Shown here in pieces: positions 33,030 through 34,072 of a stretch of DNA of 64,000 nt (within the stretch, counting starts at the first letter, position 1; the number at the start of each line of letters is the position of its first letter). The stretch is from Escherichia coli (GTDB lineage Bacteria; Pseudomonadota; Gammaproteobacteria; Enterobacterales; Enterobacteriaceae). The position numbers and the translations under genes were made by a program. Location: the NCBI RefSeq assembly GCF_051903065.1, contig NZ_CP178438.1. One strand, written 5' to 3'. The notes below the pieces were generated by a model. It was given only the letters and a program-made list of their open reading frames with translations. It ran no database searches and had not been told where the DNA came from.

Positions 33030-33267
33030 AATACTCTCTCCTGAATTTATGATTCACGGAAGTAAGCTCTCTATAACTATAATAGCTAAGAATAAGCCTG
33101 GTGAAATTATTCCGTGAAATCCGCTCGCGCGCAGGGTTATATCACGCAGGTGATAATGACTTCCTGTTATATCGCTGATAATAATTTTATATCTTGAGAG
33201 TGTTAATAACAGGTAAATAGTCTTAATTATCAACCAGGAATCATCTTAGAGCGGATGATTTGTCAAA

Positions 33268-33275
33268 CTGCAAAT
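33268..33275. repeat. left copy of the 8-bp IS1 target-site duplication (ctgcaaat)
   Basis: Identical 8-mer directly abuts both IS1 ends (33268-33275 and 34044-34051). Confidence 0.8.
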
Positions 33276-33290
33276 GGTAATGACTCCAAC

Positions 33291-33794
33291 TTATTGATAG
33301 TGTTTTATGTTCAGATAATGCCCGATGACTTTGTCATGCAGCTCCACCGATTTTGAGAACGACAGCGACTTCCGTCCCAGCCGTGCCAGGTGCTGCCTCA
33401 GATTCAGGTTATGCCGCTCAATTCGCTGCGTATATCGCTTGCTGATTACGTGCAGCTTTCCCTTCAGGCGGGATTCATACAGCGGCCAGCCATCCGTCAT
33501 CCATATCACCACGTCAAAGGGTGACAGCAGGCTCATAAGACGCCCCAGCGTCGCCATAGTGCGTTCACCGAATACGTGCGCAACAACCGTCTTCCGGAGC
33601 CTGTCATACGCGTAAAACAGCCAGCGCTGGCGCGATTTAGCCCCGACATAGCCCCACTGTTCGTCCATTTCCGCGCAGACGATGACGTCACTGCCCGGCT
33701 GTATGCGCGAGGTTACCGACTGCGGCCTGAGTTTTTTAAGTGACGTAAAATCGTGTTGAGGCCAACGCCCATAATGCGGGCTGTTGCCCGGCAT
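33291..33794 (-). CDS. insB: IS1 InsB frame (transposase made as InsAB' by -1 frameshift)
   Basis: insB ORF overlapping the insA 3' end. Confidence 0.9.
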
Positions 33795-33988
33795 CCAACG
33801 CCATTCATGGCCATATCAATGATTTTCTGGTGCGTACCGGGTTGAGAAGCGGTGTAAGTGAACTGCAGTTGCCATGTTTTACGGCAGTGAGAGCAGAGAT
33901 AGCGCTGATGTCCGGCGGTGCTTTTGCCGTTACGCACCACCCCGTCAGTAGCTGAACAGGAGGGACAGCTGATAGAAACAGAAGCCAC
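33713..33988 (-). CDS. insA: IS1 InsA (91 aa)
   Basis: [43 protein letters not shown]… Zn-finger. Confidence 0.95.
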
Positions 33989-34043
33989 TGGAGCACCTCA
34001 AAAACACCATCATACACTAAATCAGTAAGTTGGCAGCATCACC

Positions 34044-34051
34044 CTGCAAAT
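34044..34051. repeat. right copy of the 8-bp IS1 target-site duplication (ctgcaaat)
   Basis: See left copy. Confidence 0.8.
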
Positions 34052-34072
34052 CATCCGTAGAGAGGGAAATGG

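Follow-up and report, generated by a model that had tools for sequence, protein, structure and literature searches.

The 64,000-nt stretch of Escherichia coli DNA analysed here (hereafter the window) carries an IS1 element in the spacer between yciT and osmB, where it separates the two halves of a palindrome. The locus raises the question of how the element came to lie there, what kind of structure it has split and which consequences may follow for the neighbouring genes. In the reading that we prefer, and to which we assign a probability of about 0.88, a single IS1A-type element transposed recently and within one clone into the stem-loop at the 3' end of yciT, with a staggered cut that left an 8-bp duplication.

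The IS1 copy, its target site and its age

The element, referred to as copy 1, is an intact IS1 of 768 bp at positions 33276-34043 on the minus strand, as read directly from its ends and length, and its transposase genes stand in tandem with yciT and osmB. It is identical to IS1A of E. coli K-12 MG1655 at 767 of 768 positions, the sole mismatch being a C against an A at position 325. The terminal inverted repeat IRR (33276-33298, plus strand) faces osmB and begins with GGTAATGACTCC at 33276, and IRL (34021-34043, minus strand, GGTGATGCTGCCAACTTACTGAT) faces yciT and terminates with GGCAGCATCACC at 34043. Read on the plus strand, the copy starts with GGTAATGACTCCAACTTATTGAT (IRR) and closes with ATCAGTAAGTTGGCAGCATCACC (IRL). 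The pairing of IRL with IRR is imperfect, with matches at 18 of the first 23 positions. The frames of insA and insB' are both open. In a Pfam profile search the 91-aa product of insA (33713-33988, minus strand) matched Zn_ribbon_InsA (1.3e-21) and HTH_Tnp_IS1 (4.7e-31), and the 167-aa ORF of the insB' frame (33291-33794, minus strand), the catalytic DDE part of InsAB', matched DDE_Tnp_IS1 (2.3e-78); PF03811, PF12759 and PF03400 were all far past their cut-offs. The slippery motif AAAAAAC (A6C) for the programmed -1 frameshift that makes InsAB' is located at 33731-33737 (minus strand), inside the overlap of insA and insB'.

IS1 elements are 768 bp long and have inverted repeats of ~30 bp and a target duplication of 8 or 9 bp (PMC12428005). 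Copy 1 shows every defining feature of the element, namely its length, inverted repeats, insA and insB' domains, A6C motif, target duplication and near-identity to IS1A. IS1A and IS1E of K-12 have the same length, IRL and IRR, insA, insB' and A6C motif, and a duplication of 8 or 9 bp is typical of them; copy 1 differs just in its genomic location and in one base. The same copy is annotated by RefSeq in sibling genomes as an IS1A-family transposase. In the siblings 23CRST027 and 23CRST031 the IS1 copies carry 1-bp deletions in a run of C (CCCC at 33543-33546 of the window, and the same run in a second copy described below) and are annotated as 'frameshifted' pseudogenes, whereas both copies in the window are intact; these deletions are probably homopolymer sequencing errors.

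On both sides of copy 1 the same 8 bp, CTGCAAAT, form an exact direct repeat (33268-33275 on the left, 34044-34051 on the right); a 9-bp repeat fails to match. The probability of a random 8-bp match is ~1.5e-5 (4^-8). The initial annotation had described an IS1 copy with an 8-bp target duplication, inserted into a hairpin loop about 245 bp upstream of the osmB start. The duplication is borne out by the exact repeats around the 768-bp element, and the distance by the 247 bp measured from the IS1 end to the osmB ATG (33029). When IS1 and one repeat are removed, the sequence cggatgatttg-tcaaactg-caaatcatccg is obtained, 30 nt with perfect 11-bp arms and an 8-nt loop. The duplicated target comprises the final 3 loop bases together with the 5 bases that open one arm, and therefore the insertion sits at the loop/stem junction: the hairpin was indeed hit, but the target extends beyond the loop that had been named. 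Similarly, the perfect 11-bp arms of the palindrome as rebuilt earlier stand, but its written 35-nt string counts caaat twice and exceeds the real 30 nt. Nor does the hairpin lie 20-30 bp past the yciT stop codon (34073-34075) as given there, since its measured start is 16 nt after it.

In the present allele the osmB-side remnant of the hairpin (33252-33275, minus strand) consists of the arm that is 3' in the yciT RNA (33262-33252), the loop (33270-33263) and five duplicated arm bases. The yciT-side remnant (34047-34057, minus strand) is the complete 5' arm (cggaugauuug), whose partner is now 776 nt away. The gene that ends at this split hairpin, yciT (34073-34822, minus strand), encodes a DeoR-family regulator of 249 aa, and downstream of the insertion lies osmB (32811-33029, minus strand), which encodes a lipoprotein of 72 aa.

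A 400-bp reconstruction of the empty site was used as query against complete E. coli genomes, a collection with Shigella outside it. The site was uninterrupted in 5406 of 5426 genomes, where uninterrupted means that at least 80% of the 400 bp were matched in one place. The reconstruction is 100% identical to the IS-free relative ECNB21-M121, whose genome is collinear with the window except for two IS1-associated changes and is 99.9-100% identical to it. In MG1655 the osmB-yciT spacer of 268 bp is IS-free and has identical arms; the rebuilt spacer differs from it at 4 of the 268 positions, none of them within the arms. The exact junction between IS1 and its flank was found, among the complete E. 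coli genomes searched, in 23CRST027 and 23CRST031 only, two isolates from human faeces (Santo Domingo, Ecuador) which share 99.98% identity with the window along 24 kb. Since the empty site is near-universal and the junction is limited to two siblings, the insertion is recent and specific to one clone. The comparison with the IS-free allele thus shows that the insertion is not ancestral, and the earlier statements that MG1655 lacks it and that a simple transposition took place (one element, a perfect target duplication and an otherwise collinear ancestral context) are upheld. The event is of a kind already known: IS1 is archetypal, the copy is annotated in two public siblings and the mechanism belongs to the textbook.

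Nature of the split hairpin

The palindrome had been taken as probably the yciT 3' stem-loop, a function in RNA. In the alternative case it would mainly be a DNA operator for a dimeric regulator of osmBp1 or yciT, and IS1 would have split a protein-binding site. The two readings can be compared with transcript ends, folding energies and sequence variation in related genera.

The Term-seq data of Adams et al. 2021 (supplementary file 1 of PMC7815308) include a yciT 3' end, classed as 'primary', at MG1655 position 1343547 on the minus strand; the entry appears twice, and the file spans three growth conditions. By coordinate mapping the equivalent position in the window is 33248 (minus strand). 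This RNA end is a U four nucleotides beyond the stem (CAUCCG-CUCU/AAGAUG, with the end at the slash), which argues for a function in the transcript and against an operator. Files 2-4 of the same study contain no Rho-termination region for yciT or osmB (PMC7815308). The intact hairpin, with a stem of 11-12 bp, was predicted to fold at -14.5 kcal/mol in the window allele and at -18.1 kcal/mol in the MG1655 allele, and its 94-nt context folds into this hairpin with a z-score of -3.5. After the insertion the osmB-side remnant folds at just -1.4 kcal/mol, compared to -14.5 kcal/mol for the intact structure.

For comparison, 80 yciT loci were fetched across the Enterobacteriaceae. They contained 69 distinct hairpins shortly past the end of the yciT reading frame, and for the majority of the loci listed the offset from the stop codon was 5-17 nt. 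The core arm GATGATTTG/CAAATCATC is invariant in Escherichia, Citrobacter and Salmonella, the loop varies, and in each of these genera the palindrome lies within 3-6 nt of the RcsB box, as might be expected of an operator. Beyond these genera, however, the stem sequence is wholly different while the stop codon is still followed by a hairpin in this position: the stems are GATGATTTGCC in Escherichia, Citrobacter and Salmonella, GCGCCCGA in Enterobacter, GCCCGC in Kosakonia and ACCCGATGC in Kluyvera, and are unrelated to each other. A stem that changes its sequence while the hairpin persists fits a conserved structure and not a conserved sequence motif.

The pattern of substitutions points in the same direction. 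In an alignment of 23 sequences from Escherichia, Citrobacter and Salmonella, 13 pairs were recognized and 91% of the cells were paired; pairing fell to 24-55% when the partners were slid out of register. Compensatory changes occurred at 3 pairs, for instance G-C versus A-U at 9:9. Wherever only one side had changed in this alignment, the result was a G·U when read in the sense direction of yciT; taken as parts of a palindrome in DNA, these positions would be A·C mismatches. Over the 69 hairpins, 19 sense-strand G·T cells stood against 7 A·C cells. When the 55 nt that follow the yciT stop codon were compared over 79 loci, the sense strand had no advantage in minimum free energy (MFE) over the antisense strand, which was slightly more stable. 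This result could be held in favour of an operator; the whole-flank MFE comparison was replaced by the core-stem counts because flanking bases confound it. As to a possible ligand, published binding of YciT concerns ybiY and not the palindrome. YciT was therefore rejected as palindrome binder, as the literature found places it at ybiY only. Overall, an operator as the main function of the palindrome appears quite improbable, and the evidence supports an RNA hairpin at the 3' end of the yciT transcript. The Term-seq end 4 nt past the stem and the conserved, covarying hairpin agree with the original assignment. The analysis thereby assigns the conserved palindrome after yciT as the 3'-end hairpin of this gene, directly abutting the RcsB-box-like motif of osmB.

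The hairpin is not a canonical intrinsic terminator, because the stem is followed by CUCUAAGAU and not by a U-rich tract, and the yciT hairpin was left uncalled by the terminator scan. For the same reasons, the mapped 3' end could have arisen by processing, with the hairpin as protection, instead of marking a termination site. If so, transcription could already have passed the hairpin before IS1 arrived. An Rfam scan of the intact allele gave no family match. Further copies of the palindrome were not found within the window, and therefore it is not a repeated REP-like element.

An E. coli-type hairpin was also encountered on JAEWQO010000093.1, a 3.6-kb contig of a metagenome-assembled genome labelled 'Actinomycetes bacterium OH_SBrB_24', together with a YciT that is 100% identical to that of E. 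coli. The contig is almost certainly an E. coli contaminant in that bin.

Predicted consequences for yciT, IS1 and osmB transcription

In the interrupted allele the yciT RNA would retain just the 5' arm of the hairpin, so that transcription should run via IRL into insA and insB'. The same is expected from the gene order, as yciT, insA, insB' and osmB are co-directional and yciT transcription should for this reason enter IS1 through IRL. A loss of the yciT terminator with read-through into insAB' is likely on these grounds. Transcription of yciT would then end inside or beyond IS1, the yciT 3' UTR and its stability would change, and transposase expression from copy 1 may rise. Experiments have shown that insAB' transcription and transposition both increase when host transcription arrives from upstream, and that both decrease when a terminator is placed ahead of the element (PMC12428005). 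In which direction transposition would be affected is nevertheless uncertain, because Machida 1983, as cited in PMC12428005, reported that read-through represses IS1 cointegration.

The closest parallel is IS1E behind the yhhZ/yrhA promoters of K-12, a context that increases IS1 transcription and transposition (PMC12428005). In both cases IS1 follows a host gene in tandem and no terminator separates the two; here, however, the loss of the terminator stems from the insertion itself, which split the yciT hairpin, and the read-through is a prediction. As a naturally occurring allele whose tandem IS1 would have destroyed a host terminator, the locus may serve as a test case for the recently reported dependence of IS1 activity on host transcription from upstream. 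Its significance beyond strain-level annotation is small.

On the osmB side the sequences expected to control expression are intact. An RcsB-box-like motif, TAAGATGATTCCTG (33235-33248, minus strand), is located 27 bp from the IS1 end, in line with the earlier remark that the insertion lies next to the osmB promoter region. It matches 13 of the 14 positions of TN(G/A)GAN4TC(T/C)NA and spans -219 to -206 relative to the osmB ATG. The RcsB box of Salmonella osmB, validated by EMSA, lies at -215 (PMC7913699). In our alignment, consensus boxes were present at the equivalent place in Citrobacter and Salmonella. Promoter-like sites at 33206-33178 and 33105-33076 were intact in a consensus scan, which called no hybrid outward promoter across either IS1 junction. 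To go by the title of Boulanger et al. 2005, osmB is reportedly served by two promoters, one of the sigma-S type and one that depends on RcsCDB. This two-promoter control should be kept in the present allele, with 776 bp of new DNA beginning 27 bp upstream of the RcsB-box-like motif.

Insertions of IS1 or IS5 upstream of bglGFB provide a partial analogy, as there, too, IS1 is found in A+T-rich surroundings and closely ahead of a regulated promoter. The bglGFB insertions reportedly change expression, whereas osmB is not known to be silenced or activated in this way; at osmB a hybrid promoter is not predicted, and both the RcsB-box-like motif and the promoter-like sites have been spared.

Some further features of the spacer are worth recording. 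The gap between the yciT hairpin and the RcsB-box-like motif is 3-6 nt in Escherichia, Citrobacter and Salmonella (3 nt in the window), and the mapped yciT 3' end of MG1655 coincides with the first base of the motif. Between the convergent genes yciH and osmB, a strong terminator-like hairpin is present at 32691-32716, with 11 pairs, 6 of them G-C, and a T-rich tail. This hairpin is probably used by yciH and may be bidirectional.

Neighbouring insertions and the second IS1 copy

The spacer between yciT and osmB might be a selected or mechanistic hot spot for IS1, in which recurrent and possibly adaptive hits tune osmB/Rcs or yciT. Junction queries were run in both orientations, and the flanks were read in one genome per group, the other genomes being assigned by alignment geometry. 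Counting that of the present clone (CTGCAAAT), four independent IS1 insertions lie within ~50 bp. One, in 300709 and WS4437A-1, has the same orientation and a GAGAAGGGA duplication and is located in the stretch that separates the yciT stop codon from the hairpin. Another, in F5656C1, has the opposite orientation and a GATTTGCCA duplication in the other arm of the hairpin. The third, in MMC-J-0050, FAHZZU6724, CM151393 and CUVET21-424, also has the opposite orientation and lies with a GAATCATC duplication inside the RcsB-box-like motif, where it should abolish the Rcs activation of osmB in these four genomes. The neighbouring insertions carry duplications of 8 bp and 9 bp. Together with the A+T content of the 100 bp on the osmB side (71% compared to 49% for the window), this clustering would suit a preferred target.

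The frequency of interruption, by contrast, is unremarkable: the site was interrupted in 16 of 5422 genomes, between the values for two nearby control spacers, rnb-pdeR (41 genomes) and ribA-pgpB (1 genome). As these two spacers bracket the rate observed here, no exceptional enrichment is claimed; seven of the interrupted genomes were left unexplained by the IS1 junction queries. Orientation is split 2:2 among the four insertions, and their positions differ in the expected effect, one destroying the RcsB-box-like motif and the others sparing it. The spacer contained no match to the IHF consensus WATCAANNNNTTR, nor was a junction-spanning hybrid promoter called, and a literature search on IS1, hot spot and IHF gave no match. 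We therefore consider a hot spot unlikely. The control spacer between pdeR and rnb (37136-37535 of the window) showed an interruption or a rearrangement in 41 of 5422 E. coli genomes, a higher count than that of the yciT-osmB site.

The chromosomes of the clone each contain about 36-38 IS1 matches. A more far-reaching proposal is that insAB' of copy 1, otherwise very weakly expressed, came under the reportedly sigma-S-favoured transcription of yciT and would act as an unusually active donor that feeds the IS1 expansion of the clone, or else that the recurrent hits in the 50-bp zone were selected for a retuned osmB/Rcs output. We regard it as doubtful.

A second IS1 copy is present at 41895-42662 (plus strand). 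It is inverted with respect to copy 1 and 100% identical to it, lacks a target duplication and adjoins a deletion of 2,688 bp. The deleted segment is kept in ECNB21-M121, where it codes for a TetR/AcrR regulator and an RND periplasmic adaptor and includes ~756 bp from the 5' end of the RND permease gene. Both junctions of copy 2 are confined to the siblings 23CRST027 and 23CRST031. Judged from the sequence, copy 2 marks an adjacent deletion associated with IS1, by which an efflux operon beside fabI is inactivated.

The pair of copies suggests another origin of copy 1, as the end of a composite transposon or as the product of an IS1-mediated rearrangement with copy 2 at a distance of 7.85 kb, for example a duplicative inversion. 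Composite transposons with inverted IS1 ends exist, e.g. Tn1681, and the arrangement resembles them in that two identical inverted copies bracket a 7.85-kb segment, here yciT through fabI; the missing target duplication of copy 2 would also be compatible with such an origin. The present pair differs from Tn1681-type transposons in that its outer flanks share no duplication (CTGCAAAT versus AAAAGCCA) and the bracketed segment lies in its ancestral chromosomal place and orientation, 99.96% identical to the IS-free relative. Neither the outer flanks nor the collinearity with ECNB21-M121 gave a sign that the segment had ever moved. Moreover, copy 1 has a perfect 8-bp duplication of its own, and copy 2 is accounted for by the separate 2,688-bp adjacent deletion. 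A composite or rearranged origin is thus highly improbable, and simple transposition of copy 1 is retained.

Both IS1 copies and the 2.7-kb deletion document an ongoing IS1-driven erosion in this clone. The identical inverted pair (33276-42662) brackets yciT-yciZ-ymiD-pdeR-rnb-yciW-fabI, including the essential fabI, and represents a substrate for inversion or composite mobilisation, the segment itself being still ancestral in position and orientation.
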